Translations under genes and position numbers: made by a program
In this document: positions 35,674 through 59,284 of the stretch, one piece after another
How positions within the stretch are numbered: position 1 is the stretch's first letter
Layout: each line of letters opens with the position of its first letter
NCBI GenBank assembly: GCA_042408215.1
Contig: JAYFMW010000006.1
Span: 896,001-960,000 of the forward strand
Length of the DNA stretch: 64,000 nucleotides
Direction: 5' to 3'
Source: Microcoleus sp.
Lineage (GTDB): Bacteria > Cyanobacteriota > Cyanobacteriia > Cyanobacteriales > Microcoleaceae
Notes under the pieces: generated by a model
The model's input: only the letters and a program-made list of their open reading frames with translations
The model's database searches: none
What the model was told of the DNA's origin: nothing

Positions 35674-35881
35674 GGGGATTTTTCTGGAATGATTACAATA
35701 TCTCGGAATTTGTCAAAGTTTTGTCACAGTGTTTAATGCACTCGACAAATGTCTCTATTTTGAGAATAAACAAAATTTTTGCCATCTCCCGAAAGTGTTA
35801 GCTTTTTTTAAGCCTTGGCACTTTTGAGTGGGGAAGTATAGATTACCTAAGATTTCAAAAAATATACCTTAATAGAAGCTT

Positions 35882-37186
35882 TCAAACTATTTTATTAATG
35901 GCCGGCTCTTGCACTGAATCGCAATTTTTTAATAGGGACAATCCGAAGAAAATTCGCAAACCCCAAATTTCAAACCAAGGCAAACCCCATCCCAATTTCA
36001 TCTTGAGGATAAAATACTTTTCAAATGCTGCTTTTGCCCAGTTTACCCAGCGTCCTTGCAAAGCATAAGAGTAACGCCGTTTACCTGTTTTTGGATCTGG
36101 TAAAACGGGGGCGGCAACATAGACAATGCCCGTATCGCCAAATTCAGCAAAACAAATCGCTTCCAAAGTTGGTGTTTTCCAACTATTTGCGATCGCACCT
36201 AATCTCACCCCAATATTGTTAGTCACGGCTAATCCCATTGCTTCCGTCATTTGTCCAGTTTTGGGTAATCCCAGCCCAGAGATTGCTTTGTTGTCGGGCA
36301 ATTCCACGCTGACACCAAGGGCATAAACTGAGGAAAATTGAGGATGTTCGTAGGTAGGTAATACGGGAATAAACCCTTTTTCATTTCCCAATCCAGGTAC
36401 TTTTTGGATAAAATCTACTCCTCGAAAAGCTGGCAGAATCATGGCATATTCAAAGGGAAGTTTTCGCCCATCAGCAAGCGCGATCGCTTCGGCATCAACT
36501 GAGGTAATTTGAGCGTTAGTTATTGCCTGAATTCCTCTTTTTTTCATCAGGTTTTCCGTGAATTCTTGAGAGTTACTTAATCCATCTAAACCTAAATGTC
36601 CCAGATAAGGTTCTGGTGTCACAAAAGTAATTGATACTTGCTCTCGCAAACCTCTGCGCCGCAACTCCCACTCTGCCATAAATAAAAACTCATAAGCTGG
36701 CCCAAAACAACTCACTCCTGCCATTGCTCCTACCACTAAATGACGGGGATTGTCTAAGAATTTTAGCCATGCTGTTCGCGCTTCTAAAGCATGATGGGGA
36801 GAGCAAACTGAGTGCGTATAACCCCCCTCTGGCCCAAGTCCGGGGACAGCATCAAATGCAAAAGAAGCACCTGTGGCGATCGCCACATAATCATAATCAA
36901 TAATCCGATTTTCTGCAACAGTGATGCGTTTAGTTTCAGGGTCAAAATCTGTGATTTTTCCTAGTATCCATTCAATCCCGTGTCGCTGAGTTAATTCAGG
37001 TACCTTTAATTGAATGTCTTCTAGGGGGTTAAGATTCAGCGCTACCCGGACCAACCCAGGAATAAAAGTAAATTCGGGGCGATCGGAAATTAACGTCACC
37101 TGATGTTCCTTCGGCAGCAGATGTCGCAGTTCGTAAGCAGTGGGAAGTCCCCCCAATCCCGCGCCAATTACAACCACTTTTGCCAT
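35882..37186 (-). CDS. sqr: Sulfide:quinone oxidoreductase, type I-like
   Basis: GAGLGGLPTAYELRH, HSVC, SCFGPAYEF, PKTGQMTE, AICFAEFGD, with three conserved Cys. Confidence 0.88.
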   Translation of the reverse strand: MAKVVVIGAGLGGLPTAYELRHLLPKEHQVTLISDRPEFTFIPGLVRVALNLNPLEDIQLKVPELTQRHGIEWILGKITDFDPETKRITVAENRIIDYDYVAIATGASFAFDAVPGLGPEGGYTHSVCSPHHALEARTAWLKFLDNPRHLVVGAMAGVSCFGPAYEFLFMAEWELRRRGLREQVSITFVTPEPYLGHLGLDGLSNSQEFTENLMKKRGIQAITNAQITSVDAEAIALADGRKLPFEYAMILPAFRGVDFIQKVPGLGNEKGFIPVLPTYEHPQFSSVYALGVSVELPDNKAISGLGLPKTGQMTEAMGLAVTNNIGVRLGAIANSWKTPTLEAICFAEFGDTGIVYVAAPVLPDPKTGKRRYSYALQGRWVNWAKAAFEKYFILKMKLGWGLPWFEIWGLRIFFGLSLLKNCDSVQEPAINKIV

Positions 37187-37390
37187 TTTTTTGATTTCCT
37201 TTTTCTGTGCGATGGCAAGCGTCGCAGCTTGCGGATTTTTGTAAAGGTAGTATTCCTTTTTTTGCTTTACTTCATATAATTATGACCTACAAAACGCACA
37301 TTAAACATAAATATGTTGTTGTGCTTTAGCGCTCTAAGGTATTGAGTATTTTTACTTAGTTCACCCCTAAAAATTAATTTTTTAACTTGC

Positions 37391-37419
37391 TTGACAATAT
37401 GACTATGTGGTTATATACT
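37391..37419 (+). promoter_or_regulatory. Sigma70-type promoter for the hdr cluster
   Basis: TTGACA-17 nt-TATACT, 55 nt upstream of the hdrC1 ATG. Confidence 0.65.
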
Positions 37420-37473
37420 GAGCAAATAGGCAACGGGCCTAACCTCAAGTAGCTCAAATAGGGGATATACATA

Positions 37474-38181
37474 ATGGGCAAGCTATTTAACGAGCTTAAA
37501 CAAGACATTTTGTACCAGCACGGCATGAATGCCTGCCTGAATTGCGGCATATGCACAGCAGTTTGTCCAGCGGCAGAGTTTTATGACTACTCTCCCAGAG
37601 AGGTGATGAACATTTGCCAATCTGAAGCTGACGATCTAATAGAAGAGTTACTTAAGTCAGACAAAATTTGGTATTGCGGGCAATGTTTTTCCTGTAAAAC
37701 CAGGTGTCCAAGAGGTAATAATACCGCCAATGTTATTCTGGCATTGCGCCGACTTTCCGTTCGTCACGGTTACTTTGCCGAGTCAGAAAAAGGCAGACAG
37801 CAATTGTTTGCCAAGCGAGTATTTGGGGAAAATATGCTGAAACGAGGTTATACCTTGCTGGCAGAAAATATCACCCCCGCCCACTTCCCAGAACTCGGAG
37901 AAAACTGGGAATACTATTACGAACACATGGCGGAAATGCGCGAATGGTGGGATGTGCCGATGGACTTGAAAAATAGTGCAGGTTCCCACCGAGTTATTCC
38001 TGAAAAAGACATGGAAGAATTGCGGGCAATTTATCAAGCAACCGGGGCGATCGAGTTAATGGATGCCGTAGAAAAAGGCATGGAAAAGAAACTCGGTAGC
38101 AAAGAAGAAGTCGAAAAATTCTGGGAAAACTGGGTAGAAACTGCTGATAGCAGAAACTACGAAATGGACGAAAATAAATAA
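37474..38181 (+). CDS. hdrC: Heterodisulfide reductase subunit C-like (HdrC1)
   Basis: CLNCGICTAVCP...SPR...IWYCGQCFSCKTRCPRG. Confidence 0.85.
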   Translation: MGKLFNELKQDILYQHGMNACLNCGICTAVCPAAEFYDYSPREVMNICQSEADDLIEELLKSDKIWYCGQCFSCKTRCPRGNNTANVILALRRLSVRHGYFAESEKGRQQLFAKRVFGENMLKRGYTLLAENITPAHFPELGENWEYYYEHMAEMREWWDVPMDLKNSAGSHRVIPEKDMEELRAIYQATGAIELMDAVEKGMEKKLGSKEEVEKFWENWVETADSRNYEMDENK

Positions 38182-38192
38182 GGAGAAAAATT

Positions 38193-39104
38193 ATGCAGAC
38201 CGTCAATAGCCTTAGCAATGTAAATAGCAGTCTTGATGCCACAGAAACGGCAGGACTCATCTATATGCGCGAAGAAGAAAAATTAGCGCATGATGTGTAT
38301 GTCACCCTGTACCAGCAGTGGGGATTGTCTACTTTTAACAACATCGCAAATAGCGAAAATCGTCACGAGAATAAGATTGAAACACTGCTCAATAGCTATC
38401 AGATTTCAGATTCAGTAGGTGATAATCCGGTTGGTGTTTTTGTCAATCCAGATTTACAACAATTGTACAACAATCTGGTAGCGCAAGGGAGTCAATCGCT
38501 GACTGAAGCCCTGAAGGTAGGAGTTTTAATTGAGGAGACTGACATTGCCGATTTGCAAACGCGAATTGCCCAAACAGATAACGCAGACATTCAACAAGTA
38601 TATCAACAGCTTTTAAGTGGATCGAATAATCACCTGAGTGCATTTACTTCAAACTTGACTGGCGAAACGGTTAATACCAACTCGTCTAGTTGTCCAACAA
38701 ATCAGACTCAGGGAACAACAACAGATGACACCCTAACTGGGGGGAGATGTAATCAAATGTTAGTTGGGAATCGTGGCGGCGATTTACTGACAGGAGAATT
38801 AGGAAATAATAACGTTGTTCGGGGTGGTGCTAACTCAAGATATAGCACAGATTTTTTGTTAAATTCGCCGAGTCAAATTAACAACTATCAAGTACAGGAA
38901 TTTGAGCAGAATTATCGAAATTTAGATCGGAATTTTGCGGCTCAAAACCTGCCCATTGGCTCATGCAATGCCGGGAGGAGCAGTAACTTATCTACGAACA
39001 ACTTGGGGACAGGCTTTTCTGCCAATCAAACCCAGATTGGTACTCTTAATATGAGGCCGACCAATGATTGTAATACCCAAGGTTTAATTTGCGTTAATTC
39101 CTGA
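38193..39104 (+). CDS. DUF2202 ferritin-like protein with a low-complexity C-terminal tail
   Basis: MREEEKLAHDVY, SENRH, IEETDIADL, SNNHLSAF. Confidence 0.8.
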   Translation: MQTVNSLSNVNSSLDATETAGLIYMREEEKLAHDVYVTLYQQWGLSTFNNIANSENRHENKIETLLNSYQISDSVGDNPVGVFVNPDLQQLYNNLVAQGSQSLTEALKVGVLIEETDIADLQTRIAQTDNADIQQVYQQLLSGSNNHLSAFTSNLTGETVNTNSSSCPTNQTQGTTTDDTLTGGRCNQMLVGNRGGDLLTGELGNNNVVRGGANSRYSTDFLLNSPSQINNYQVQEFEQNYRNLDRNFAAQNLPIGSCNAGRSSNLSTNNLGTGFSANQTQIGTLNMRPTNDCNTQGLICVNS

Positions 39105-39164
39105 ATTAACATCAACATCAACAGAAACTCCGAATCAAAAGACAATAAATAAGGACAAAACATA

Positions 39165-40211
39165 ATGAAAGTAACAAGACAAAATCTGGTTTGGGAAAAA
39201 CACCAAAAGCAGGTTCCAACAGTCGATGATGAAGGCGGCAAATTGTGGGGATGCTTCCGCAGTTGCTTTCTCCAAAGTGCCGCACCATACACCGAAGGGA
39301 TTGCCTATAAAATATTAAAAAACGATTTGGGCATGGACTTGCGGGAAGCACCCGGACATACTTCTTGTGGCGCAATTGGCTATCACGGAGATGTGTCAAA
39401 CCTCGAAACTCAAATGGTAGTTGCAGCGCGGAATTTTTCCGTAGCCCATCACGAATTAGGTGTTGATAATCTCTTCTCATTCTGTGTCACTTCTTTTGCG
39501 AATTACACAGAAATGATCAAACTCTGGGAAGAAGAACCAGAGTTGCGAGAATACACCGAAAAAACCTTAAAAGAAACCACCGGACGAGAATTTTGGGTTC
39601 CCCATGTTTCCGGGGGAAGACCATCTGTTGTTCATGCTTCCGATGTTTTCTATGCCAATCGGTATAAACTAGCCGCCAAAGCGAAATATAGCCTGAAGGG
39701 AATTAAAGCAGTCGATCACATCGGATGTCACTACGGAAAAATCTTTCCGGGTGAAGCAATGGGTGGGGTGGAATTTCCCCAAGTTTTAGTAGGATTACTG
39801 GCAGCTTTTGGTGCAGAAATTGTTGACTATCCAGAAAGAAGACATTGCTGTGGGATGGGTTTTCGCCAGTGTGCTTTTCCCGAAAACAGAGACTACACCG
39901 CAAGTAACGTCTACAAGAAAATGAAAGGTCTCAAAGAAGCGCACCCAGACTGCAATTTGATTCTCACTAACTGTCCCGGATGTACGGTATTTTTGGATGC
40001 TGAACAAGGAACGATTAAAGAAGTTTTGGAAGAAGAATTTAACGTCAGCGTTCTGGATTACGCACAATTGACTGGGTTAATGTTAGGCTATGACCCATTT
40101 AAGGATTGCGGACTGAATGCCAAGGCGGTTGAAATCGAGCCTTTGCTGGATAAAATCGGCATTCCTTACGATAAATCTAAGACTGCTGAACAACGCCGAA
40201 GACCATTTTAA
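39165..40211 (+). CDS. hdrB: Heterodisulfide reductase subunit B-like (HdrB1)
   Basis: CCG-domain motifs RSC, TSCG, HIGCH, HCCGMG, NCPGC. Confidence 0.85.
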   Translation: MKVTRQNLVWEKHQKQVPTVDDEGGKLWGCFRSCFLQSAAPYTEGIAYKILKNDLGMDLREAPGHTSCGAIGYHGDVSNLETQMVVAARNFSVAHHELGVDNLFSFCVTSFANYTEMIKLWEEEPELREYTEKTLKETTGREFWVPHVSGGRPSVVHASDVFYANRYKLAAKAKYSLKGIKAVDHIGCHYGKIFPGEAMGGVEFPQVLVGLLAAFGAEIVDYPERRHCCGMGFRQCAFPENRDYTASNVYKKMKGLKEAHPDCNLILTNCPGCTVFLDAEQGTIKEVLEEEFNVSVLDYAQLTGLMLGYDPFKDCGLNAKAVEIEPLLDKIGIPYDKSKTAEQRRRPF

Positions 40212-40335
40212 GAGGTGAGAAACCGGGTTTCTTCCTGGGCACAAAGTTTTCTGGTAAAACCTAACCATAAACCCGGTTTCTTTTCAACCAATCAAATAAA
40301 CCCGGTTTCTTTAATTAACTATAAAGGTAAAAAAC

Positions 40336-41406
40336 ATGAACAAACAAGTGGTCGTAATTGGTGGTGGTCCTGCTGGTCTAGCAGCGGCTGGAAAACTGCA
40401 AGACTTTGGCTATGATGTAGTTTTAATCGAGAAACAAGCCGAAGTTGGGGGACATTTAAACAAGTGGTATAAAGTGTTTCCTGATTTTACCGATGCTTCA
40501 GAAATTACCGCCAATCTCAAAGCTGGTTTAGGGAATACCAGAATTGTAAATAATGCTACGGTGACAGAGATTAAAGGTTCTGCTCCTAATTTTCAAGTGA
40601 CGGTATCAACGGGAGAAGAAATTGAGGCAGCGGCGATTTTAGTTTCGACAGGATATAAGCATTTTGATGCAACTTTAAAAGAAGAATACGGCTACGGAAT
40701 TTATGATAACTGCATCAATTCGGTAGAACTAGATGCCATGCTGAAGGCACAAAGCGTTAAAACCAGAAAGGGGAAAGTGCCGAAGAAAGTAGCGCTGATT
40801 CATTGCGTGGGTTCTCGTGATGAGAAGGTGGATAATAATTACTGTTCGCGAGTTTGCTGCACGAATGCCATTAAGGTAGGAATTGAGATTAAAGAACAGA
40901 ATCCCGATTGTGAAATTTACTGCCTTTATATGGATATTCGGGTGTTTGGTCGCGGTTATGAGGAACTGTACAGAACTTCTCAACAAGAGTTTGGAGTGCA
41001 GTTTCTTCGGGGTCGGCTTTCTGAAGCGGGTGAGAAAAATGATGGCAGTTTATTGTTGCGGCTAGAAGATACGTTAACGGCAAAACCGATGCGGTTGACG
41101 GTCGATCTTTTGGTTTTGATGGTGGGGATGGAGGGTAATACCGAGTTATCTGACGTGGCCGGTTTAACCTTGGGTTGCGATCGCTTCTATGCCACTGCCC
41201 ATCTGCAATATTCTAACAATCATTCTGCTCGATCGGGTATTTTTCTCGCCGGGGCAGCAACGGGGCCAAAAGCGATTATGGAATCCATTACCGATGGCCG
41301 ATCGGCGGCGGCAGAAATTGCCAGTTTTGTAGCGAGTAATCAAGCAAATTTGGCATCCAACCTGAATGGAAAAGCAGTAACAAAAATGGCAGCATCTCTG
41401 AAGTGA
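40336..41406 (+). CDS. hdrA: Short HdrA-like flavoprotein (FAD plus one 4Fe-4S; no ferredoxin inserts)
   Basis: GGGPAG, EK..VGG, HCVGSRD...YCSRVCC, YMDIR..GRGYEE, GIFLAG..GPK. Confidence 0.88.
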   Translation: MNKQVVVIGGGPAGLAAAGKLQDFGYDVVLIEKQAEVGGHLNKWYKVFPDFTDASEITANLKAGLGNTRIVNNATVTEIKGSAPNFQVTVSTGEEIEAAAILVSTGYKHFDATLKEEYGYGIYDNCINSVELDAMLKAQSVKTRKGKVPKKVALIHCVGSRDEKVDNNYCSRVCCTNAIKVGIEIKEQNPDCEIYCLYMDIRVFGRGYEELYRTSQQEFGVQFLRGRLSEAGEKNDGSLLLRLEDTLTAKPMRLTVDLLVLMVGMEGNTELSDVAGLTLGCDRFYATAHLQYSNNHSARSGIFLAGAATGPKAIMESITDGRSAAAEIASFVASNQANLASNLNGKAVTKMAASLK

Positions 41407-41417
41407 GGTAAACAACA

Positions 41418-42008
41418 ATGGCAACTAAGAATAAGAAAAAATTTGTCTTTGGTCTGAAAGTTGATCGTCAACTCGATGGCGATCAAATGAACTCCGATTT
41501 TATTAAGAAAGTTCTGGCTGAAGGTGGCCAAGGTGCGGCGATCGCGGCTTGTATGCAATGTGGCACTTGTAGCGGTGGCTGTACCAATATTGACCTGATG
41601 GATATGTCCCCCCGAACCCTAATTTTAATGGTGCAAAGAGGGGAATGGGAAAAGGTACTTCAAAGCAATGCTTTGTGGATGTGTAGTTCCTGCTACATCT
41701 GTACCTCTCGATGTCCGCGTGGGGTGCGTCCTTCTGATGTGATTGAAGCGGTAAAAGCACTCGCAATTCGCCAAGGAATCGAGAACGATTCTACCCGATT
41801 CAATCAGATATTTGTCGAGTTAGTTCAGAAACGAGGCATTTTGTTTGAACCGGAATTAATGCACAAATATGGCGGTTTACCAGCCATGATCGAACAAGCA
41901 GAATTGGGAATTAAATTAGCTTTAAAAGGCAAAATGTCACCATTCCCAGAAAACGTAAAAGATCCCAAAAAATTTAGTGAAGCATTAGAAAAGGCAAAAA
42001 AACCATGA
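41418..42008 (+). CDS. hdrC: Heterodisulfide reductase subunit C-like (HdrC2)
   Basis: CMQCGTCSGGC...LWMCSSCYICTSRCPRG. Confidence 0.88.
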   Translation: MATKNKKKFVFGLKVDRQLDGDQMNSDFIKKVLAEGGQGAAIAACMQCGTCSGGCTNIDLMDMSPRTLILMVQRGEWEKVLQSNALWMCSSCYICTSRCPRGVRPSDVIEAVKALAIRQGIENDSTRFNQIFVELVQKRGILFEPELMHKYGGLPAMIEQAELGIKLALKGKMSPFPENVKDPKKFSEALEKAKKP

Positions 42009-42883
42009 AATCAACCACGAAATATTCTTACTATCCCGGATGTAGTCTGCATACCACAGCTAAAGAGTTTGATATCTCAACTAGAGTGGTAATGCAGGAA
42101 TTAGGAATTGAACTAGAAGACCTCAAAGACTGGTCTTGTTGTGGCGGTTCCATCGCGGCGAGTGTTTCTCACGATGTTGGTATGGCAATGGCGGCGAGAA
42201 ATGTCGCTTTAGCCCAAAAACAAAATCTCGATTTATTAGCATCTTGTTCGGGGTGTTACAACAAGTCAGCAAGGGCGCTGAAGGCATTAAAAGAACCCAC
42301 CGAAAAAGATAGAATTATGGCTATTATGTCGGATATGGGGATCGATGTTTCTGACTATAACATCCGGGTCAGAAATGTGGTGGATGTGTTAGTAAATGAT
42401 GTGGATATTGCCTCGCGAGTAAAAAAGCCATTAACAGGTTTAAAAGTTGCCTGTTATTATGGATGTCTGTTAACTAGACCGGCAGATATCACGGGTTGGG
42501 ATTCGCCGATGTTCCCGACATCAATGGATAGATTATCTGAAATTTGTGGGGCGGAAGTAGTAGATTTTCGATCGAAAACTAAGTGCTGCGGTGGCCCGAT
42601 TCTGGTATCCAAAGAAGAGGTCGCGTTTGACCTTACGAAGAAACTCTTGGATGAGGCCCAATCTCTGGGTGCAGATTGTATTGTTTTGGCTTGTCCGTTG
42701 TGCGACACTAACCTAGAACTGCGCCAGTCGGATATCGAGAAAAAATACAACGTTTCTTACAATTTGCCAATTCTCTATATCACCGAAATCATCGGATTGG
42801 CTTTAGGAATGAAACCGAGTAAATTGGGGATGAACAAGCACATTGTTTCAGCACAACCCGTCCTCAAAAAATTGGGTTTATAA
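42005..42883 (+). CDS. hdrB: Heterodisulfide reductase subunit B-like (HdrB2)
   Basis: YYPGCSL, WSCCG, CSGC, YYGCLL, KCCGG, ACPLC. ATGA overlap with hdrC2. Confidence 0.9.
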   Translation: MKSTTKYSYYPGCSLHTTAKEFDISTRVVMQELGIELEDLKDWSCCGGSIAASVSHDVGMAMAARNVALAQKQNLDLLASCSGCYNKSARALKALKEPTEKDRIMAIMSDMGIDVSDYNIRVRNVVDVLVNDVDIASRVKKPLTGLKVACYYGCLLTRPADITGWDSPMFPTSMDRLSEICGAEVVDFRSKTKCCGGPILVSKEEVAFDLTKKLLDEAQSLGADCIVLACPLCDTNLELRQSDIEKKYNVSYNLPILYITEIIGLALGMKPSKLGMNKHIVSAQPVLKKLGL

Positions 42884-42892
42884 ACCATAAAA

Positions 42893-43188
42893 ATGAAACG
42901 TAAACAGCCAATAAATTTAACGATTTATCTTCGAGCAATTGTGACTTTAGGACTTTTAAGTGCTTGGAGTTTAGTCACATTCACCGGATTTCTGCTGTGG
43001 TTGATTCCCCGGGTCAAAAGGTAGGTCATGGCTTTCTATTTTGGGGATTAACCAGACATGGATGGGGTGATATTCATTTCATCATTAGCTTAGTTGCCTT
43101 CGGTTTGACCGTGATTCATATTATCCTGTATTGGCGAGCTTTAAGCAAATTAGTTCGATATTTAATCACGGTTCATACTTCTCTCTAA
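42893..43188 (+). pseudogene. DUF4405-like small membrane protein, frameshift at about 43010
   Basis: MKRKQP...FTGFLLWLIPR then (G)QKVGHGFLFWGLTRHGWGDIH in another frame. One G is missing in CCCCGGG, which may be a sequencing error. Confidence 0.65.
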
Positions 43189-43204
43189 CTTCGAGCTTGA
43201 CATT

Positions 43205-43759
43205 ATGAACAACTACAAACTCCAGAGAAACAATCATAGTACAGTTGTGAAGTGGGTTATAGCAGGAATTATAATCATCAGTAATGGCATCGTTTTTTCC
43301 TGCTTTTCCCCTTTAAAAGCACTGTCTCAAACTTCCTTAGACACTAAGACGCAACAGGCAATGATTGACGCGATTAATGATGAGTATCGCTCCAGAGCAT
43401 TGTATGATGCTGTCCTGCAAAAATTTGGGTCTCTCCGCCCTTTTAGCAACATTGTCCAAGCGGAAAATAACCATGTTAATCTTTGGATTTCCTTGTTTGC
43501 TAAGTATGGAATGGCTGTACCGACGGATTCTTTTGCCGGCAAAATGTCGGTTCCTAATACCTTACAAGCGGCCTGTCAAGCTGGGGTTGAAAATGAAATT
43601 GCTAACGTGCAAATGTACGATCGCTTTTTAGGTTTTGTCACCCAGCCAGATTTGCAGGCAGCTTTTACCCAACTGCGCCAAGTCTCTCAGGAAAAGCATT
43701 TAGCCGCCTTCCAGCGCTGTCATAATCGACCTGGTGTCGGTCAAGGTCGCAATTTTTAG
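43205..43759 (+). CDS. Exported/anchored ferritin-like (DUF2202-like) protein
   Basis: N-terminal hydrophobic segment; DEYRSRALY, AENNH, EIANVQMY, SQEKHLAAF. Confidence 0.75.
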   Translation: MNNYKLQRNNHSTVVKWVIAGIIIISNGIVFSCFSPLKALSQTSLDTKTQQAMIDAINDEYRSRALYDAVLQKFGSLRPFSNIVQAENNHVNLWISLFAKYGMAVPTDSFAGKMSVPNTLQAACQAGVENEIANVQMYDRFLGFVTQPDLQAAFTQLRQVSQEKHLAAFQRCHNRPGVGQGRNF

Positions 43760-43850
43760 TGATGACATGATTGTTCAAAACCGACTCAAATTTTAGCTTT
43801 TGATCGAATCGATCGGAAAAAATCTCTGTTCATTTAAACCAGTAATTATC

Positions 43851-44057
43851 ATGTTTAGCAATGTGGGAAGCCCAGATCGAATCGTTCGCTTTTTATTAGC
43901 AGCAATTCTGCTTTACAGGGGTTTGAGTATTTACCAAGGTACTGCCTTGGGAATTGGATTAGATATTGCCTCAGCTTTGCTGGCTTTCAGCGCTTTGTTT
44001 GGCTTTTGTGGCATCTATCGCGTGCTGGGGATTAGCACTTGCAAATCTCCCAACTGA
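43851..44057 (+). CDS. DUF2892 (YgaP-like) membrane protein
   Basis: NVGSPDRIVR...GFCGIYRVLGISTC. Confidence 0.8.
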   Translation: MFSNVGSPDRIVRFLLAAILLYRGLSIYQGTALGIGLDIASALLAFSALFGFCGIYRVLGISTCKSPN

Positions 44058-44111
44058 CTTGTGTAATTTTCCGTTAAATTCCGACAACTATCAACACTCT
44101 AAAAAACAATA

Positions 44112-44645
44112 ATGGATAATAGTTTTCCTCTCGAAAGTCCTTCCATGTCTCGCCGACAGTTGCTCAATTTTCTAACTGGTACTGTCGTTGCATCTACTGC
44201 CGGTGCCGCACTTTATCCAGTCGTGAAATATTTTATCCCCCCATCAGAAAGCAGCGAAGGGGGAGCGATTATCGCCAAAGATATCTTAGGAAATCCCATT
44301 CCCGCCAGCCAAATTTTAGCCGAACCTGTGGGAACTCGCGCTTTAGTGGCGGGGTTAGCTGGCGAACCTACTTACTTAATTGTTCAAAAAGATAGTATGA
44401 TCGATCCGGTGGGAATTGTTGATAACTGCACCCATTTAGGCTGTACTTTTCCTTGGAATGGAACTGACCAAGAATTTCAATGTCCCTGTCATGGTTCTCG
44501 CTACAGTGCTGACGGTTCTGTATTACGGGGCCCGGCTCCTCTGCCTCTAAAATTAGTTAATGTTGCCGTCAAAGAAAATGCCATTTTGATTTCTCCTTGG
44601 ACAGAAATTGACCCCCGCACCGGCGAAACTCCTTGGTGGGTTTAA
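44112..44645 (+). CDS. petC: Cytochrome b6f Rieske iron-sulfur subunit paralog
   Basis: Tat-like SRRQLLN, CTHLGC and CPCHGS boxes, GPAPLPL, C-terminal PWW. Confidence 0.92.
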   Translation: MDNSFPLESPSMSRRQLLNFLTGTVVASTAGAALYPVVKYFIPPSESSEGGAIIAKDILGNPIPASQILAEPVGTRALVAGLAGEPTYLIVQKDSMIDPVGIVDNCTHLGCTFPWNGTDQEFQCPCHGSRYSADGSVLRGPAPLPLKLVNVAVKENAILISPWTEIDPRTGETPWWV

Positions 44646-44694
44646 ATCCAGGAATTGAACAACAAATAAAATCATCAACAACCGGAAAAAATAG

Positions 44695-45138
44695 ATGTTT
44701 CAAAGCGTCACTGAATCCCTAGCTATTGGTAATGTTACCTCATCGGAAGAACTGAGCGAAATTTACCAAAAAGGCTACCGGACAATCATCGATTTATGTA
44801 CCGCGGCAGAAGGAAACCAACTCAATGCAGAGGAAGTTAAACAACTAGGGTTTGATTATATCAGCTTACCCGTTGATAGACAAAACCTCAAACCGGAAAT
44901 TCTGCAAGGATTTATGCAGGCTGTTGATTCCCAGAACCAGCCCATTTATACCCGCTGTGCATCAGGTTTGCGAGCGGGAGTAATGACTCTATTAACTTTA
45001 GCAAATCAAGAAAATTGGACGGAACAGCAGTATTTAGAACATCGGCAAGCTTTGGGAATAGAACACAAGCCGAATTGTCCTTTAGAAGCCTTTGCTCATG
45101 AGTATTTTATCAACTCACAAAATCAAGTTAAATCTTAG
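44695..45138 (+). CDS. DUF442/PTP-like putative sulfurtransferase
   Basis: GYRTIIDL and the CASGLRAG active-site loop. Confidence 0.7.
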   Translation: MFQSVTESLAIGNVTSSEELSEIYQKGYRTIIDLCTAAEGNQLNAEEVKQLGFDYISLPVDRQNLKPEILQGFMQAVDSQNQPIYTRCASGLRAGVMTLLTLANQENWTEQQYLEHRQALGIEHKPNCPLEAFAHEYFINSQNQVKS

Positions 45139-45149
45139 GAGGATTTGCC

Positions 45150-45656
45150 ATGAAAATCGCTGTAGCTAGTCAAAATAAAACAGCTATCACGGAACACGCC
45201 GGACATTGCCGTAAGTTTTGGATTTACGAAACCAACGCAACAGAAATTCTGGGAAAGCAACTTTTGGAATTATCTCCAGAACAATCTTTTCATAACAGTT
45301 CTGGCGACGAACCCCATCCTTTAGATGATGTGCAGGTTTTGATTTCTGGAGGTATGGGACGCGGTTTGGTGCGACGAATGGAACGAAAAGGAATTGAAGC
45401 CGTTATCACCAAAGAAACCGATTTAGAGAAAGCGGTAAGTGCCTATCTTGATGGTTCTTTAGTTAGGGGAGAACCGGAATGTCACGAACATGAAGGTGAA
45501 CAAAAGCATGAAGGTGAACACAAGCATGAACACAAGCATGAACACAAGCATGAAGGTGAACAAAAGCATGAAGGTGAACACAAGCAGGAAGGTGAACATA
45601 AGCATCAACATCGCCATCAACACGGTCATCAAGGCGAATCTAAGAGTGCCGTGTAA
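45150..45656 (+). CDS. NifB/NifX-family (FeMo-co/Fe-S binding) protein with His/Glu/Lys-rich tail
   Basis: MKIAVAS...HAGHCRKF...LISGGMG, followed by a tail of HEGEQK/HKHE repeats. Confidence 0.8.
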   Translation: MKIAVASQNKTAITEHAGHCRKFWIYETNATEILGKQLLELSPEQSFHNSSGDEPHPLDDVQVLISGGMGRGLVRRMERKGIEAVITKETDLEKAVSAYLDGSLVRGEPECHEHEGEQKHEGEHKHEHKHEHKHEGEQKHEGEHKQEGEHKHQHRHQHGHQGESKSAV

Positions 45657-45735
45657 TTCCCGTTATTACTGCTAGTTGGGTAGGGTGCGTGGCAGCCACG
45701 CACCCTACTATTGATGTTCATCTACTAATACAATT

Positions 45736-46191
45736 ATGTGGGCAAGTTCGATTACAGCTTATTTCCATTACTTAGGCTTCATGGTAGCTTTTGCGGCTCT
45801 CACAGTCGAGATTTTTAACTTCAAAAAAGAAATGACCCTTGATGAAGCTAAAAGAGTTGCTTTTGCCGATGCTGCTTATGGGATAGCTGCTACGGCAATT
45901 CTAATCACAGGGGTGTTGAGAGTTCTCTATTTTGGCAAGGGAACGGATTACTATTTAAATAATCCATTTTTCTATGCTAAAATGGGTGTGTTTATCCTCG
46001 TCAGTTTATTTTCCCTGTATCCAACATTTACCTTTATATCGTGGTTTAAAGACTTACAAAGTGGTCAAACTCCCCGATTAGAAATTGACCAAGTAAACCG
46101 ACTATCTTGGCTGATTAAAGGGGAATTATTCTGTTTTACTTTATTGCCACTGCTCGCAGCAGTTATGGCGAGAATTACCGGGTGGAGTTAA
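45736..46191 (+). CDS. DUF2214 family membrane protein
   Basis: AYFHY, DAAYG, TGVLR..KGTDYY..NPFFYAK, SLYPT, AAVMAR. Confidence 0.8.
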   Translation: MWASSITAYFHYLGFMVAFAALTVEIFNFKKEMTLDEAKRVAFADAAYGIAATAILITGVLRVLYFGKGTDYYLNNPFFYAKMGVFILVSLFSLYPTFTFISWFKDLQSGQTPRLEIDQVNRLSWLIKGELFCFTLLPLLAAVMARITGWS

Positions 46192-46203
46192 GGGAGAAAA
46201 ATT

Positions 46204-47208
46204 ATGCAGCTTTCCAAAAACAATCTACAAGAAAGACAAAACCAAATCTACGATGTCATTGTCATTGGTGGGGGTGCGGGAGGACTTTCGGCTGGTATTT
46301 ACTTGCAACGATATCGCCTTTCTAGCTTAATTATTGATAAAGGCAAAGCGCGGTCTTTTTGGATGCAAGAATTGCACAATTATTTAGGTTTGCCTCCCGA
46401 CACTCCGGGGCGAGTTTTGTTACAACGAGGAAAAGAACATTATGACAGTTTAAATGGTGATTTTCTCAATGGTTTTGTTGAAGAAGTTGTAGACGAGGGA
46501 GAAACCTTTGCTGTCAAGGTTAAAGTCGGTCGTCAAAATAGTAGTGAGGCTGTTTTTCGGTCAAAATACTTAATAGCTGCAAGCGGAATTATCGACCATT
46601 TACCGCCTTTAGATGATCTGCGGAATGTTTTCGAATATGCCGGTTATAACTTGCACGTTTGTATGGTATGCGACGGGTATGAAATGACTGACAAAAAATG
46701 CGGTTTCTTTGCAGGTAGTGAAGCAGCTATTGAGGAAATGGTGTTTAATTTAAGTTGGTTTACGCCCTATATTACTGTCTTTACTCATGGAGTGTTTACT
46801 GTCAGCGAACCCCTGAAAGCTAAACTGCGAGAACATGGTTATCCCCTTGTAGAAACACCGATTAAACAATTTCTAGGTCAAAATCACCAAATGACAGGGG
46901 TTGAGTTAGCAGATGGAGCAATAATAGAGTTAGAAACTGGCTTAATTTCAATGGGTTCTCGCTATCACAATACCTATCTCAAGGGAATTAACTTAGAAGT
47001 CAAAGGTAACAATTTACTTACTGATAAAATGTGCCAAACTTCTCACCCCAGAATTTTTGCGATCGGGGATTTAAAAGTAGGGTTAAATCAAGTTATAATA
47101 GCAGCAGGAGATGGCGCTTTAGCGGCTACGGCAATTTGGCGAGAAATCCGTCGTGCAGCAGGAGCTAAACCTTGGGTTGAAAATCTCCCTGCTGTGACAA
47201 ATGGATAA
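46204..47208 (+). CDS. Thioredoxin-reductase-like FAD/NAD(P) oxidoreductase
   Basis: GGGAGG, CMVCDG, TSHPRIFAIGD, QVIIAAGDG. Confidence 0.85.
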   Translation: MQLSKNNLQERQNQIYDVIVIGGGAGGLSAGIYLQRYRLSSLIIDKGKARSFWMQELHNYLGLPPDTPGRVLLQRGKEHYDSLNGDFLNGFVEEVVDEGETFAVKVKVGRQNSSEAVFRSKYLIAASGIIDHLPPLDDLRNVFEYAGYNLHVCMVCDGYEMTDKKCGFFAGSEAAIEEMVFNLSWFTPYITVFTHGVFTVSEPLKAKLREHGYPLVETPIKQFLGQNHQMTGVELADGAIIELETGLISMGSRYHNTYLKGINLEVKGNNLLTDKMCQTSHPRIFAIGDLKVGLNQVIIAAGDGALAATAIWREIRRAAGAKPWVENLPAVTNG

Positions 47209-49537
47209 TATTATGGCTGAAGATATTCGCGATCGCAAAATCACTGAAATCCCCCTTGCGGAAGCTACCAAGCAACTACAAAGAGAAATTAAACAACGGG
47301 AAAAAGCCGAAGCACAACTGAAACAACAAGAGCAAAAGTTATCACTGTTGTTCAATCAAACTGCTTTAGCCGCCATTGAATGGAATGCCAATTTAGAAGT
47401 TATCGCTTGGAATTCCGCCGCCGAAAAGGTGTTCGGTTGGAGTGTCACCGAAATGCTAAGTCTTCAGGCCTCCGATTTAATCTTACCCCAAAAAGTCAAA
47501 CCGCGAGAAATTCCAATTATTAAAGAGCCACTGACATCAATTGGCGGGACGCACAATATTAATGAAAATGTCACAAAAGATGGCAAATTAATTATTTGTG
47601 AGTGGCACAATACGCCGTTAGTCGATGAAGAAGGAAATATTATCGGTATTTTTTCCTTGGTGAATGACATTACGGAACGCTGGAAAATAAGAGAAGCGTT
47701 GCGGGAAAAAGAGGAGTTTTTACGCAGTATCTACGAAGGGGTAGATTATCCTATTTTCGTGATAGATGTAGATGCTCACGGAACTTACCGTTGCGCCGAT
47801 CTGAATCCAGTTGCTAAAAATATTTTTGGCATAAATTTAGATGAAATTCCAGCGGTGTTAAGTCCAGAATTATTTCTAAGAGAACTAGCAAAAGGTGGTC
47901 TGCATTCCTCGGATAAATGCGTTCATCACGGACAGACAATTCAATATGAAAAAGTCTTGAATATAGAGGAAAAAAAGACTTGGTGGTTAACAGTAATAAC
48001 ACCCCTAAAGGATATTGATGGACGCATTTATAGGTTAGTCGGAACTTGTACTAATATTACGCAACGCAAACAATTCGAGTCAGCTTTACAACAGTCGGAA
48101 ACCAGATATAGACAACTGGCACAGCGAGAATCTATGCTCAATTGTATGGCCAGTCAAATTCGCGCTTCCCTTGATTTTAATACTGTTGTAGAAACGGCGG
48201 TACAAGAACTTTATCAAGTGTTGCAGTTGGAAAGATGTGCCTTCAGATTATATTTACCAGAAGCTATTCCCCCAGTAGCTGAAGTGATCGCGGAAGCGAA
48301 AAAAACAGACTTACCTTCCTTAAAAGGGAATCGAGTTCCCACTGCCGAAATTGCCCCGTTAATTGCTAAGATTACACGCAAAGAAGTTACCAGAATCGAA
48401 GATACTCTAACTCTAGAAGATCCCGTAGAAAGACAATTTTTTCTTGAGACTTTAGACTATCGTGCTGTCGTGTTTATACCTGTTCACACTCAGTCAGGTA
48501 AAATGGGTGCAATTAGTTGCAGTCATAGTAGTAAAACCCGATGTTGGAGTGATAGTGAAGTACAACTATTAGAAAGGGTTGCGGATCAACTCGCGATCGC
48601 TTTAACTCAAGCAGAATTATACGAACAAAGTCGAGCGATCGCGGATTCTGAAGCCAATAAAGCCTTAGAATTGCAAGAGGCTTTGCTGAAATTGCAACAC
48701 ACCCAAACTCAACTGATCCAACAGGAAAAAATGTCCAGTTTGGGACAACTGGTAGCGGGAGTCGCCCATGAAATTAATAACCCAGTTAGCTTTATTTACG
48801 GCAATATTACCCCCGCGAAAACTTATATAGAAGATTTGCTTAATCTCGTGGAGCTTTATCAGGAATCCTATCCCAATCCCACCCCTGAGATTCAAACAGA
48901 ATTGGCAGAAATTGATTGGGAGTTTATGCAGAAAGACTTTCCTAGTCTGCTCGATTCTATGAAAACTGGTGCAGAGCGGATTCGACAAATTGTCCAATCC
49001 TTGCGTAACTTTTCCCGACTAGACGAAGCCGAGATCAAACCTGTTGATTTGCATGAAAGTATTGACAGCGTTCTATTAATTCTGGAAAATCGGTTAAAAG
49101 CTAATTTAGAACGTCCGGCTATCCAGGTAGTTAAAGAATATGGCAACCTGCCTTTAGTTGAGTGCTATGCAGTCGAAATCAACCAAGTTTTTATGAATCT
49201 ACTTCTGAATGCCATTGATGCTTTAGAAGAAGTTCCGTTGAAGCAGCCAAGGATTCGGATTGTTACGGAAGTATGGGAAACCGAAGAATTAGCGATTCGC
49301 CTTATTGATAATGGAGTGGGGATTCCAGCAGAGATAAAAAAGCGAATTTTTGACCCATTTTTTACCACAAAAATTGTAGGAAAAGGAACGGGTTTAGGAT
49401 TGTCGGTTGTGTACAAAATTATCGAAAAACATGGAGGAACTATAGAATGTATTTCCGCCGATGAAAAAGTAACGGAGTTTGCGATCAAAATTCCCCAATT
49501 TCTCAAAAAAATCACCCTGAATACACCCATTGACTAA
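47201..49537 (+). CDS. PAS-PAS-GAF sensor histidine kinase
   Basis: WNSAAEKVFG PAS, GAF, GVAHEINNP H-box, NAIDA, DNGVGI, GKGTGLGL. Confidence 0.92.
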   Translation: MDNIMAEDIRDRKITEIPLAEATKQLQREIKQREKAEAQLKQQEQKLSLLFNQTALAAIEWNANLEVIAWNSAAEKVFGWSVTEMLSLQASDLILPQKVKPREIPIIKEPLTSIGGTHNINENVTKDGKLIICEWHNTPLVDEEGNIIGIFSLVNDITERWKIREALREKEEFLRSIYEGVDYPIFVIDVDAHGTYRCADLNPVAKNIFGINLDEIPAVLSPELFLRELAKGGLHSSDKCVHHGQTIQYEKVLNIEEKKTWWLTVITPLKDIDGRIYRLVGTCTNITQRKQFESALQQSETRYRQLAQRESMLNCMASQIRASLDFNTVVETAVQELYQVLQLERCAFRLYLPEAIPPVAEVIAEAKKTDLPSLKGNRVPTAEIAPLIAKITRKEVTRIEDTLTLEDPVERQFFLETLDYRAVVFIPVHTQSGKMGAISCSHSSKTRCWSDSEVQLLERVADQLAIALTQAELYEQSRAIADSEANKALELQEALLKLQHTQTQLIQQEKMSSLGQLVAGVAHEINNPVSFIYGNITPAKTYIEDLLNLVELYQESYPNPTPEIQTELAEIDWEFMQKDFPSLLDSMKTGAERIRQIVQSLRNFSRLDEAEIKPVDLHESIDSVLLILENRLKANLERPAIQVVKEYGNLPLVECYAVEINQVFMNLLLNAIDALEEVPLKQPRIRIVTEVWETEELAIRLIDNGVGIPAEIKKRIFDPFFTTKIVGKGTGLGLSVVYKIIEKHGGTIECISADEKVTEFAIKIPQFLKKITLNTPID

Positions 49538-49541
49538 TGCT

Positions 49542-50369
49542 ATGAAAACCTCGTTTATCCTCACTGTTTTAGTGGAAAATACCTCTTCCGGTAGAGGATT
49601 ATTGGGAGAACATGGACTATCTTATCTAATAGAAGCCGGTGAGTACCGAATTTTATTCGATACAGGACAAGGATTGGCATTACAACATAATGCTAAAGAG
49701 TTGGGAATTTCTTTACATAATTTAGATGCTGTTGTCCTCAGTCATGGTCATTACGATCGTGCAGGTGGTTTAATCACAGTATTAGATGAATGTCATCTCA
49801 CCAAATTATTCCTGCATCCATCGGCACTGCCACCCAAATTTAGCAATCGAGGTGATATTGGTTCTCCTATCCAAGATAAAGATACTCTGGAAAAGAAATT
49901 TCGCCAGTTAATTTGGACAGATAAACCAACAGAAATTATCCCTGGAGTTTATGTAACTGGTACTATTCCTCGACTTCATCCTTTGGAGGATACGGGGGGT
50001 GATTTTTGGCAAGATTCCCAGCATGATCGAGTTGATTTACTCTTAGATGATCAAGCGTTATTTATTGATTCACCAGAGGGTTTAGTGGTGGTTTTAGGGT
50101 GCGCTCATGCGGGAGTAATTAACACTCTAAATTACATTGCACAAATTACTGGAAAAGACAAGTTTTATGCTATAATTGGGGGAATGCACCTTTTGAATGC
50201 TAGTCGCGATCGCCTGCAAGCAACGGCAGAAACCTTGACCAAATATGACGTGCAAATAATAGGTGCTAACCACTGCACAGGAATGACCGCCATAGCTTTT
50301 TTGTGGCATCAGTTGGCGGGAAAGTGTATCAGTTGCTCCGTTGGTACTCGCTTAAAATTTGGCATTTAA
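49542..50369 (+). CDS. MBL-fold metallo-hydrolase
   Basis: EHGLS, LFDTG, SHGHYD, GCAHAG, GGMHL, HCTG. Confidence 0.88.
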   Translation: MKTSFILTVLVENTSSGRGLLGEHGLSYLIEAGEYRILFDTGQGLALQHNAKELGISLHNLDAVVLSHGHYDRAGGLITVLDECHLTKLFLHPSALPPKFSNRGDIGSPIQDKDTLEKKFRQLIWTDKPTEIIPGVYVTGTIPRLHPLEDTGGDFWQDSQHDRVDLLLDDQALFIDSPEGLVVVLGCAHAGVINTLNYIAQITGKDKFYAIIGGMHLLNASRDRLQATAETLTKYDVQIIGANHCTGMTAIAFLWHQLAGKCISCSVGTRLKFGI

Positions 50370-50412
50370 AAGCGGTAATTTGACGAGTTTATTTAGTTTT
50401 TAGGACAAAGAT

Positions 50413-50874
50413 ATGCGAAGAATTTTTCTAAAATTATTGCTGGGGATGTTATTATCTATTGGGATTTTGTCGATCGCGCCCATGCCAGTCATAGCCGCAG
50501 GTTCGATGCCCCAAGCGCTATCAGACGCGATCGATAATTTTTTGACTTCTCTTCCAAGCGATTATTACACTGTGATGAAGATCGAGAACCTTAAAGAGAA
50601 GATCAAAACTGATAATCCTCTATTAATTGATGTCAGACAGCCTGCTGAATACGCCTCTGGACACATTCCCAATGCCATTAATATCTCCTTGCAAACCTTA
50701 GCCGAAAATCTCGATAAAATTCCCAAAGATCGCCCTGTAGTTCTCTATTGCACAAGCGGCTATCGAACGGGAATGGGAGTTATGACTTTGGAAATGTTAG
50801 GATATACTAACGTGCAGGCTTTTCCTCCTAGCATTCAAGGTTGGAAAGCGGCGGGTGAACCTTTGGAAAAGTAG
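50413..50874 (+). CDS. Rhodanese-like sulfurtransferase with signal peptide
   Basis: IDVRQPAEYASGHIPNA and YCTSGYR, with an N-terminal signal. Confidence 0.88.
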   Translation: MRRIFLKLLLGMLLSIGILSIAPMPVIAAGSMPQALSDAIDNFLTSLPSDYYTVMKIENLKEKIKTDNPLLIDVRQPAEYASGHIPNAINISLQTLAENLDKIPKDRPVVLYCTSGYRTGMGVMTLEMLGYTNVQAFPPSIQGWKAAGEPLEK

Positions 50875-50968
50875 GATGTACTCACATCTTGCCAATAGAT
50901 CAACCTAAAAGCCTAGATTTTTCCTTAAGAAACCCGGTCGATCAGGTTAATGAAAAAGAGGAATACTT

Positions 50969-52688: not shown

Positions 52689-53049
52689 AGGTTTCTGGTG
52701 TTGGGAAAATCTTGCTGATTCGGGCAGTAAATATGTCTGATGGCTGATGAAGCCGTCACTTTCGCCGCTCTAGCTTGAGTATAAATACTTTTTGTTAATT
52801 GTACAACTAATTAAGAATATTATATATATAATGATTTAGTAGAATAAAGTGGTAATCCATCCTGCGGAGGTTAGCCATTATTCACTACCACTAGCAACTT
52901 GGGTGTTTTCATAACCTCTGTGCGATCGCCTTCAAAACCCAAGAGTTGTGTTGAATTGACCGGATGGGAGGAGTTACGAAAGGCTGAAGGCTTGATGGGA
53001 TTACCCCGCTTTAAACCGCATTGAACAGCGGTTAATTCAGCTTCAACAA

Positions 53050-55038: not shown

Positions 55039-55171
55039 ATAATTAATTAACCCGACTCGATCTTAGTTCTTGGTGATTGGTAGTTGGTTGTTAGTAGGAA
55101 GACATAATTAAACGGAGAGTTGTATAATTGAAGCAGGATTGATATTTTCAAATTCCCATTGGCTCAAAACT

Positions 55172-55981: not shown

Positions 55982-56087
55982 TACCTTTTAAAGATATAAT
56001 CATTAAGAAGAATTAGGCAGAAGAGAACCCCCAACTCTGTTAAAAAGAGGGCTATTGAGATTAGGGTCTAGGAAGGAACAAACACAG

Positions 56088-59273: not shown

Positions 59274-59284
59274 GGATTTAGATC

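Follow-up and report, generated by a model that had tools for sequence, protein, structure and literature searches.

A 64,000-nt stretch of Microcoleus sp. DNA (GenBank assembly GCA_042408215.1, contig JAYFMW010000006.1, positions 896,001 to 960,000), which we call the window, encodes a complex of heterodisulfide reductase (Hdr) type, hdrC1-hdrB1-hdrA-hdrC2-hdrB2, head-to-head with a gene for a type I sulfide:quinone reductase (SQR). Judged from sequence, this complex appears to belong to a separate lineage, confined to cyanobacteria, that lacks the LbpA, DsrE and sHdrH proteins of the sHdr sulfur-oxidizing systems. We propose that it oxidizes the sulfane sulfur produced by SQR, and that it does so without O2, a reading that in our judgment falls just short of probable. 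Sulfide use by cyanobacteria is usually explained by SQR alone, and to our knowledge no enzyme is known for the O2-free step from sulfide to thiosulfate in these organisms; the hdr set is a concrete and widespread candidate for the enzyme that takes cyanobacterial sulfide oxidation past elemental sulfur.

The six open reading frames (ORFs) of the cluster are intact and all lie on the + strand (Table 1), in agreement with the initial annotation, which had also described an HdrA with one FAD site, one CxGSRD..CSRVCC cluster and no ferredoxin inserts; that description stands, with no Fer4 domain found in the protein by Pfam. The cysteines of the CVGSRD...CSRVCC motif are invariant in all 22 short HdrAs that we aligned, and the window protein aligns end to end, over residues 3-330, with 6tjr, the sHdrA of Hyphomicrobium denitrificans, a protein of 349 aa (E 3.7e-62, 213 bits). 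The two HdrB subunits are unlike one another: HdrB2 aligns with methanogen HdrB (5odc_B, 174.9 bits) and matches it at each of the ten cysteines of the two non-cubane clusters, and HdrB1 has a complete C-terminal CCG site and an N-terminal site with three of five cysteines, S67 and S110 standing at the positions where cysteines would be expected from methanogen HdrB (9sfi_C). The residues of the resulting 3 + 5 pattern of HdrB1 (C34, C68, C107, C188, C228, C229, C270 and C273) are present in all 31 cyanobacterial and in 45-46 of the 46 metagenomic homologues, and four more cysteines, C30, C236, C263 and C315, were seen in the cyanobacterial homologues only; HdrC1 is 82-91% identical among the cyanobacterial loci. 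A classical HdrB2 beside a non-classical HdrB1 fits the way in which sHdrB2 and sHdrB1 are characterized in the subunit passages of PMC11094781. From these features, the product would be a soluble Fe-S flavoprotein complex with a short HdrA dimer at its core, an HdrC1-HdrB1 arm bearing the non-classical site and an HdrC2-HdrB2 arm bearing the classical disulfide-reductase site with its two non-cubane clusters. For type I sHdr, the stoichiometry put forward is an HdrA dimer that carries a single B1C1 arm and a single B2C2 arm (PMC11094781), and by homology this is most likely the one that applies here.

How far does the likeness to sHdr go? Type I sHdr is defined by the gene order shdrC1B1AHC2B2, with sHdrH between shdrA and shdrC2 (PMC11094781). 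Like the type I sHdr-LbpA systems of H. denitrificans, Aquifex aeolicus, Acidithiobacillus and Sulfolobales, the window keeps five core genes in one cluster in the order C1-B1-A...C2-B2, combines a short HdrA (one FAD, one [4Fe-4S], no ferredoxin domains) with a classical HdrB2 and a non-classical HdrB1, and has sulfurtransferase genes nearby, the Rhd442 type included. The sHdr-like architecture that had been claimed for the cluster, with its short HdrA and two unlike HdrB-HdrC pairs, is thus borne out; the claimed hallmark order, with a hypothetical gene after hdrA, is not. Only an 11-nt gap separates the end of hdrA (41406) from the start of hdrC2 (41418), leaving no gene and hence no sHdrH between them, and the extra gene, "X", lies between C1 and B1 instead. 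Among the 33 cyanobacterial loci that we compared (31 genome loci, the Picosynechococcus sp. PCC 7003 plasmid and the window), "X" holds this place in three, namely the window and loci L018 and L025; it is a facultative DUF2202 insert and not sHdrH. The marks of type II sHdr, a C2-B2 fusion gene (shdrB3) and etfAB-emo within the cluster, are absent as well, C2 and B2 being separate genes and no ETF domain occurring in the 57 window ORFs scanned with Pfam.

Could the cluster nevertheless be an ordinary type I sHdr-LbpA member whose partners are encoded elsewhere? The five core genes in type I order, the full-length alignment with 6tjr and the presence of a Rhd442-type gene, a domain also encoded near hyphomicrobial shdr clusters (PMC11094781), would all suit such a view. 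The partners themselves speak against it. Hdr-like genes are described as 'inevitably associated' with LbpA, a GcvH-like lipoate-binding protein, which is essential in the only sHdr system tested genetically (PMC6067878). The genome of the window, 99.98% complete, holds a single GcvH-family match (PF01597), placed between gcvT and gcvP, and the 15 other cyanobacterial genomes examined that carry hdr have one full-length GcvH apiece, with extra partial matches in two of them (21.6 and 22.1 bits) that lie about at the 22.2-bit cut-off. DsrE (PF02635) has no match in the window's own genome in a search that left the DsrE2-specific family outside, and the single TusA (PF01206) sits on another contig between dnaJ and rsgA, unlinked to hdr; the cyanobacterial set is linked instead to SQR, a cytochrome b6f Rieske paralogue and DUF2214. 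The text of the GTDB-wide census table in PMC11094781 (397 assemblies, 20 phyla, 353 mapped) contains neither 'Cyanobacter', 'Oscillatoria' and 'Phormidium' nor 'Altiarch'. With its 213 bits, 6tjr would rank below every one of the 150 cluster representatives listed for HdrA (lowest 238.6 bits), and the similarity scores of HdrA give indirect signs pointing away from sHdr membership. We regard ordinary membership as very unlikely, and the initial idea that this may be a distinct variant, no gene for LbpA, TusA or DsrE having appeared in the window, gains from the genome search, which adds GcvH only, no DsrE and an unlinked TusA. With the methanogen HdrABC complexes (5odc, 9sfi), the window shares the ten cluster cysteines of HdrB2, a 242-residue HdrA core and HdrC-type diclusters, although the N-terminal domain and the two ferredoxin domains are missing from its HdrA (356 vs ~650 aa), two unlike B-C pairs stand in the place of one, and no hydrogenase or formate dehydrogenase partner is encoded in the window. 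The PDB alignments of HdrA leave out residues 236-318 of 9sfi_A.

The gene set is spread widely among cyanobacteria. The 31 genome loci, most of them with cyanobacterial titles, encode HdrAs 67-93% identical to that of the window, and carriers include Kamptonema, Oscillatoria PCC 10802, Phormidium pseudopriestleyi FRX01 (locus L012, HdrA 86% identical), Microseira, Floridaenema, Planktothrix, Snowella and Cyanobacterium; a Sodalinema metagenome-assembled genome encodes this HdrA at 68% identity. One locus record is titled 'Actinomycetota MAG' (L022), and its genome holds the cyanobacterial hdrA, 84% identical. A tblastn search of PLSDB returned two records, one cyanobacterial plasmid and one from Ilyobacter. 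In PCC 7003, hdrC1B1AC2B2 (L048; NZ_CP016476.1 185219-190959) is carried by a 253-kb plasmid, typed MOBF and mobilizable, and a gene resembling type I SQR (55% identical) starts 6 nt further on. None of the 33 loci departs from the order C1-B1-A-C2-B2, which answers the synteny search that the initial annotation had suggested.

The tie to SQR, which had been proposed from the window, is real both at the loci and across genomes. In blastp searches with the window proteins, SQR of either type was found in the flanks of 18 of the 33 loci, with 10 loci having type I and 9 having type II; the type I homologues beside hdr in the nine loci other than the window are 52-89% identical to its SQR, the nine type II genes, all in other loci, lie directly beside hdr, and in three loci, L024, L029 and the Picosynechococcus plasmid, only 3-6 nt separate hdrB2 from the sqr that follows it. 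The remaining 15 loci, many of which are short contigs, show no SQR within the flanks examined. Other recurrent neighbours by the same method are PetC (17 loci, including five whose flanks show no SQR), rhodanese (8, or 10 by single-linkage clustering), Rhd442-like proteins (8) and proteins resembling persulfide dioxygenase (PDO; 7); by clustering and Pfam, they are DUF2214 (9), SulP (9), psbA-like genes (5), rubrerythrin (5) and ArsR (3). Among 400 sampled cyanobacterial genomes, with an HdrA of at least 70% identity defining a carrier, 15 carry hdrA; a long form at 34% identity is all that one other genome has. Of the 15 carriers, 11 have type I SQR, vs 25 of the 385 non-carriers, and this SQR is thus about eleven times more frequent with hdr, a ratio that overstates the statistics since kin genomes are not independent, the direction of the association being plain. 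In 5 of those 11 genomes, no more than 5 kb separate it from hdrA; the four carriers without it all have type II SQR, adjoining hdr in two, and some SQR is therefore found in 15 of 15.

The window sqr itself matches the structures of Acidithiobacillus ferrooxidans (3sz0; E 2.8e-88, 300 bits) and Aquifex aeolicus (3hyv; E 7.8e-82, 279 bits) end to end, and scores far less with human SQOR (52 bits) and 3h8i (85 bits). We take 3sz0 and 3hyv to be type I SQRs, the type labels of the other structures being likewise our assumption, and on that footing full-length similarity to these two over the type II and type V structures upholds the head-to-head arrangement with a type I SQR that had been read from the window. 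The promoter that had been placed in the region common to sqr and hdr is present as a promoter-like site, TTGACA-17-TATACT at 37391-37419 (+), 55 nt 5' of hdrC1; at 11/12 it is the top match in 37000-47500 (10.5 kb), a region in which such sites as a class are not enriched (26 found vs 20.6 expected). The sqr-hdrC1 spacer was scanned for an operator-type inverted repeat, and none was found. An ArsR-type regulator stands beside sqr in locus L006; its best match in the window's own genome is on contig C12, not in the window, and it was set aside as a candidate.

What might this complex do? It travels, in our proposal, in a sulfide island whose other members are SQR of type I and/or type II, sulfurtransferases and an additional Rieske subunit of b6f. 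When sulfide is present and O2 is not, SQR would make sulfane sulfur in the form of persulfide or polysulfide, which rhodanese- or Rhd442-type carriers would hand to HdrB1. HdrB1 would oxidize it to sulfite without O2, replacing the O2-dependent PDO encoded nearby, and the electrons would run from HdrC1 over the HdrA flavin and HdrC2 to HdrB2, and from there to a disulfide or the plastoquinone pool; from the latter they would pass through b6f with the alternative Rieske subunit to photosystem I. Sulfite and sulfane sulfur would then combine to thiosulfate. Subunit stoichiometry, substrate, direction and electron acceptor are all inferred here, and for partners and binding we draw on gene neighbourhood at most. 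The argument is one of context: the neighbours are genes for sulfide oxidation and photosynthetic electron transport, PDO would be unable to work in sulfide-imposed anoxia, and a strain now placed in Sodalinema, the genus of the metagenome-assembled genome with this HdrA, converts sulfide to thiosulfate and not to elemental sulfur (PMC12694226), which together favour an O2-independent oxidation.

A bolder version of the proposal is that cyanobacterial anoxygenic photosynthesis has in this lipoate-free Hdr complex its missing enzyme for sulfite formation, oxidizing SQR-derived sulfane sulfur without O2, with the four cyanobacteria-specific HdrB1 cysteines replacing the LbpA dithiol and electrons passing via HdrB2 and plastoquinone to a dedicated b6f Rieske protein; we think it rather unlikely. 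If it is true, one sulfide gives photosystem I at least six electrons vs two. The gene set also has consequences for how primary production is modelled for the sulfidic waters of the Proterozoic, in which it matters how many electrons each sulfide yields. An LbpA-free relative also probes which parts of the sHdr mechanism need lipoate. Picosynechococcus sp. PCC 7003 belongs to a group of transformable model strains, and its plasmid-borne hdrC1B1AC2B2-sqr makes the question directly testable.

A number of observations weigh against an O2-free oxidation of sulfane sulfur by this complex. LbpA is essential in the sHdr system that has been tested and was found by PF01597 neither in the window's own genome nor in the 15 other carriers, and so the chemistry of sHdr is not simply transferable. 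All five Hdr subunits look soluble by crude hydropathy, and no NAD(P) or quinone acceptor site is readable from their sequences. When the comparison is held to one stretch of 242 residues, HdrA reaches 199-205 bits against methanogen HdrA vs 165.6 bits against the sHdrA of H. denitrificans (6tjr). The nearest HdrAs outside cyanobacteria are an Altiarchaeales-labelled group (58% identity), another group (52%) and a group from Bacteroidales and anaerobe metagenomes, including gut (40-50%), and these organisms are not known as sulfur oxidizers; in a metagenome set made up of the best 80 loci for the Altiarchaeales-type query, Pfam scans of 17 ORFs from five Bacteroidales-type loci and 22 ORFs from five more distant ones found no sulfur-oxidation family and no GCV_H, DsrE or TusA. 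Lastly, the RNA-library contigs that cover hdr give no expression level, strand, start or condition, and RNA libraries may contain DNA.

Several of these observations would be at home with the reverse reaction, which is the main rival: in dark anoxia, fermentation electrons from ferredoxin or another low-potential donor would be used to reduce elemental sulfur, polysulfide, organic persulfides or disulfides to sulfide, and the complex would be the 'sulfur respiration' enzyme of mat cyanobacteria. Dark reduction of elemental sulfur by Oscillatoria limnetica and Microcoleus chthonoplastes is described in the older literature, and we know of no enzyme for it in cyanobacteria. HdrB2 retains every ligand of the methanogen disulfide-reducing site, HdrA is by the scores just given nearer to methanogen HdrA than to sHdrA, the nearest relatives carry Altiarchaeales or Bacteroidales labels or come from anaerobe-type metagenomes, a gene like that of thioredoxin reductase (TrxR) lies near hdr in 4 of the 33 loci and rubrerythrin in 5, and the strongest RNA-library signal comes from sediment samples. 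However, co-transcription of hdrB2 and sqr where they lie 3-6 nt apart, at three loci, would put such an enzyme on one transcript with a neighbour whose product it undoes; the commonest neighbours (b6f Rieske, psbA-like, rhodanese, PDO-like and SulP genes) suit light-driven oxidation over dark fermentation; and the HdrA is without ferredoxin-binding domains. On balance we find reduction improbable, although it is a serious contender.

We would give no more credence, and no less, to a third function, that of an oxidoreductase which serves thiol-disulfide exchange or redox balance in general under anoxic stress and handles no sulfane sulfur at all, for example by reducing a heterodisulfide or linking ferredoxin to the thiol pool, and which is a passenger of the island since both would be useful in anoxic habitats. 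Related C1-B1-A modules do occur among unrelated housekeeping genes (L066, L076, L103), and the 15 loci without SQR in the flanks examined, together with the 4 of 15 hdr-bearing genomes without type I SQR, are what such a passenger would lead one to expect. Set against this are the presence of some SQR in all 15 sampled carriers, the roughly elevenfold excess of type I SQR with Hdr (11/15 vs 25/385, kinship overstating the association), the occurrence of hdr and sqr in common operons or at divergent promoters, and the recurrence of sulfurtransferase genes at hdr loci. A full-text search found no functional study and no published link between Hdr and SQR, a search that a published tree with cyanobacterial HdrA may have escaped. 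Two genome papers do list the genes. For P. pseudopriestleyi FRX01 they appear as hdrA2B2C2, with a mention of bifurcation (PMC8002359), and for Cyanobacterium sp. DS4 five genes are listed as hdrB-C-A-B-C, with the reaction left open (PMC12060301). The gene set is the same as ours, FRX01 being our locus L012; the difference lies in a reading of the methanogen HdrABC type, the passages of the two papers that deal with these genes drawing no link to sHdr, LbpA, SQR or a Rieske paralogue (PMC8002359, PMC12060301).

The region is cyanobacterial DNA and part of an accessory island. In the congener G409, window positions 35768 and 56053 are directly joined, and in G407 positions 35715 and 56054 are joined via a 332-bp spacer; with junctions as clean as these, the 20.3-kb segment is an insertion-deletion polymorphism. 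Among 32 distinct genomes of congeners, a single one was found to encode HdrA, and the congener G413 (locus L007) has a compact version of the island with hdr, type I sqr, DUF2214, Rhd442-like, PetC, SulP, PDO-like and type II SQR genes. The initial annotation had taken HIP1 sites as a mark of a resident cyanobacterial locus, and this is half right: sites lie at 41177 (hdrA) and 41538 (hdrC2), and HIP1 also occurs inside sqr, which befits cyanobacterial DNA, whereas HIP1 is depleted across 37187-47200 (2 sites vs 8.7 expected, P = 0.008) and the rarity of the segment among congeners is not that of a resident locus. The G+C content of the region is 0.42-0.43 vs 0.44-0.47. The lower G+C and the scarce HIP1 sites are also what a contaminant or an assembly chimera might show, which had been named as something that would undo the finding; we give this a negligible probability, as HIP1 sites lie within hdrA, hdrC2 and sqr, HIP1-rich flanks join the island on a long contig, both contig sides run into genes common to 20 of 20 congeners, the island recurs in G413, and 13 public sequencing runs contain at least half of the stretch's sampled words. 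In an HdrA tree, a Geminocystis sequence is nested among Oscillatoriales sequences (SH-aLRT 97). This nesting, the plasmid copy and the island polymorphism with its HIP1 deficit point to transfer among cyanobacteria, that is, to an island that moves between them.

That tree, made by a quick method with a midpoint root, covers 16 cyanobacterial HdrAs, the window's, the Altiarchaeales- and Bacteroidales-type short forms and long multidomain HdrAs. In it, the cyanobacterial sequences form one clade (SH-aLRT 99), the Altiarchaeales-type group is sister to this clade (SH-aLRT 92, unstarred), the Bacteroidales-type group comes next, and all short forms stand apart from the long multidomain HdrA modules (98). 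The Bacteroidales-type metagenome clusters have C1-B1-short A in the same order as the window, with HdrAs 40-50% identical and the 3 + 5 cysteines in HdrB1, but in the five loci examined C2-B2 is replaced by a ferredoxin of 106-114 aa and an HdrD-like protein of ~600 aa with N-terminal hydrophobic segments, one Fer4 and two CCG domains. With C1-B1-A in common and the second arm replaced, the conserved core is C1-B1-A, and the second arm is exchangeable. Unrelated housekeeping genes and no sulfur genes make up the flanks of the Bacteroidales-type loci L066, L076 and L103, and none of the ten metagenome loci scanned is a canonical sHdr cluster. Human-gut-labelled contigs (L078, L086, L092, L098 and L104) have hdrC1-hdrB1-short hdrA and then an HdrC-like ORF, with the cut contig L115 showing HdrA and the HdrC-like ORF only; the ~600-aa HdrD-like protein follows in L066, L076, L094 and L103, and in L086 its place is taken by a 754-aa ORF without a Pfam match. 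This gut-type hdrC1-hdrB1-hdrA module appears to be common in anaerobes. In L128, an Etf-linked short HdrA stands among acyl-CoA genes. As leads only, the nearest ESM Atlas clusters are the protein's own, then several that are commonest in Bacteroidota and then a large one commonest in Actinomycetota.

Is the cluster transcribed? Part of the stretch is contained in 19 of the 23 public runs listed (11 studies), and 6 of the 19 are on record as RNA. We compared four sediment metatranscriptomes, X14-X17, each from a different study. In X15, contigs 95-97% identical to the window span hdrC1-hdrC2 at a contig word depth of 530-3157; contigs span hdrC1-hdrB1 in X16 and X17 at a depth of 35-142, and positions 36776-45518 in X14 at a depth of 2.5-9. 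The "X" gene is also covered by a relative's RNA-library contigs. These data are consistent with transcription of hdr in nature, and the parts uncovered in X15-X17, namely sqr and the genes after hdrC2, carry no information. Contigs of X15-X17 start at 37474, and we rejected this position as a transcript start; the relative's upstream DNA differs and leaves loose ends. In X14, one contig (depth 2.2) joins 47200 to 49529 and so skips the PAS-GAF histidine kinase gene, which a close relative may lack. The same library has many short two-place contigs in 32486-34350, with joints that skip ~1.7 kb between 32606-32675 and 34346-34349; this region includes the repeat-rich stretch of the P-type ATPase gene, and dispersed short repeats are the likely cause.

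Table 1. Features of the hdr region and its surroundings, in window coordinates
Feature	Position	Strand	Basis and remarks
Accessory segment with sqr, hdr, petC and the rest	35769..56052		20.3 kb; absent in two congeners
Type I sulfide:quinone reductase, 434 aa, divergent from hdrC1	35882..37186	-	End-to-end PDB matches; Pyr_redox_2
Intergenic region sqr-hdrC1, 287 nt	37187..37473		Promoter-like site inside
hdrC1-like ferredoxin subunit, 235 aa	37474..38181	+	Fer4_8/17/9/10; two CxxCxxCxxxC; HdrC models 77-91 bits, below cut-off
DUF2202 (ferritin-like) protein "X", 303 aa	38193..39104	+	PF09968, 157.5 bits
hdrB1-like subunit, 348 aa	39165..40211	+	One Pfam CCG stretch
Short hdrA, 356 aa	40336..41406	+	Pyr_redox_2 and HdrA/HdrA2 models; one FAD fold, one [4Fe-4S] motif
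hdrC2-like ferredoxin subunit, 196 aa	41418..42008	+	Fer4 domains, two CxxCxxCxxxC; TIGR03290 83 bits, QmoC 72 bits, both below cut-off
hdrB2-like subunit, 292 aa	42005..42883	+	Two CCG stretches; TIGR03288 204 bits, SdhE model 198 bits, both below cut-off
DUF4405 protein (74 aa), 184-aa protein, YgaP-like transmembrane/DUF2892 protein (85 aa)	42964..44057	+	Pfam; crude hydropathy
Extra cytochrome b6f Rieske subunit (PetC paralogue, 177 aa)	44112..44645	+	NF045928 296.8 bits, cut-off 250
Rhd442/DUF442-type sulfurtransferase-like protein, 147 aa	44695..45138	+	PF04273, TIGR01244
NifX/NifB-like (Nitro_FeMo-Co) protein	45150..45656	+	Pfam; near hdr in 7/33 loci
Hairpin, 14-bp stem	45679..45709		After the NifX/NifB-like gene
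DUF2214 membrane protein, thioredoxin-reductase-like flavoprotein (CxxC), PAS-GAF histidine kinase	45736..49537	+	Pfam/NCBIfam
Second sulfide module	56846..62108		Type II SQR, PDO/GloB-like MBL, YeeE/YedE-like ORFs, SulP permease

Downstream of hdrB2, the three products of 42964..44057 are, by Pfam and crude hydropathy, probably small membrane or secreted proteins; the 184-aa member has an N-terminal hydrophobic segment, and its family occurs near hdr in 8 of the 33 loci. The PetC paralogue shares 52% identity with the genome's other PetC, encoded on contig C17, and this second PetC might mark a b6f variant used under sulfide. A psbA-like (Photo_RC) ORF that is 79% identical to the psbA copies of the window's own genome lies a few kb from hdr in five loci (e.g. 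L011:3424-4506). A His/Glu/Lys-rich repeat (HEHEGEQKHEGEHKHEHKHEHK...) at the end of the NifX/NifB-like protein hints at metal binding, and tblastn aligned the first 111 residues of this protein only. The DUF2214 gene recurs near hdr in 9 of the 33 loci, the TrxR-like gene in 4 and the PAS-GAF kinase gene in 3. Beyond the kinase gene follow an MBL-fold gene and a rhodanese gene. In the second sulfide module, the type II SQR (437 aa) matches human SQOR at E 2.8e-113, the PDO/GloB-like MBL protein has 234 aa, and the two YeeE/YedE-like ORFs overlap (59285-59713 and 59602-60123) and are possibly one split gene. Mobile or repeated DNA is also present: an IS605 OrfB/TnpB gene (53740-54924) lies inside the 20.3-kb segment and has at least three further genomic copies at 94% identity, and a 397-aa ORF on the - strand (62147-63340) lies in a region with at least ten further copies at 88-91%.

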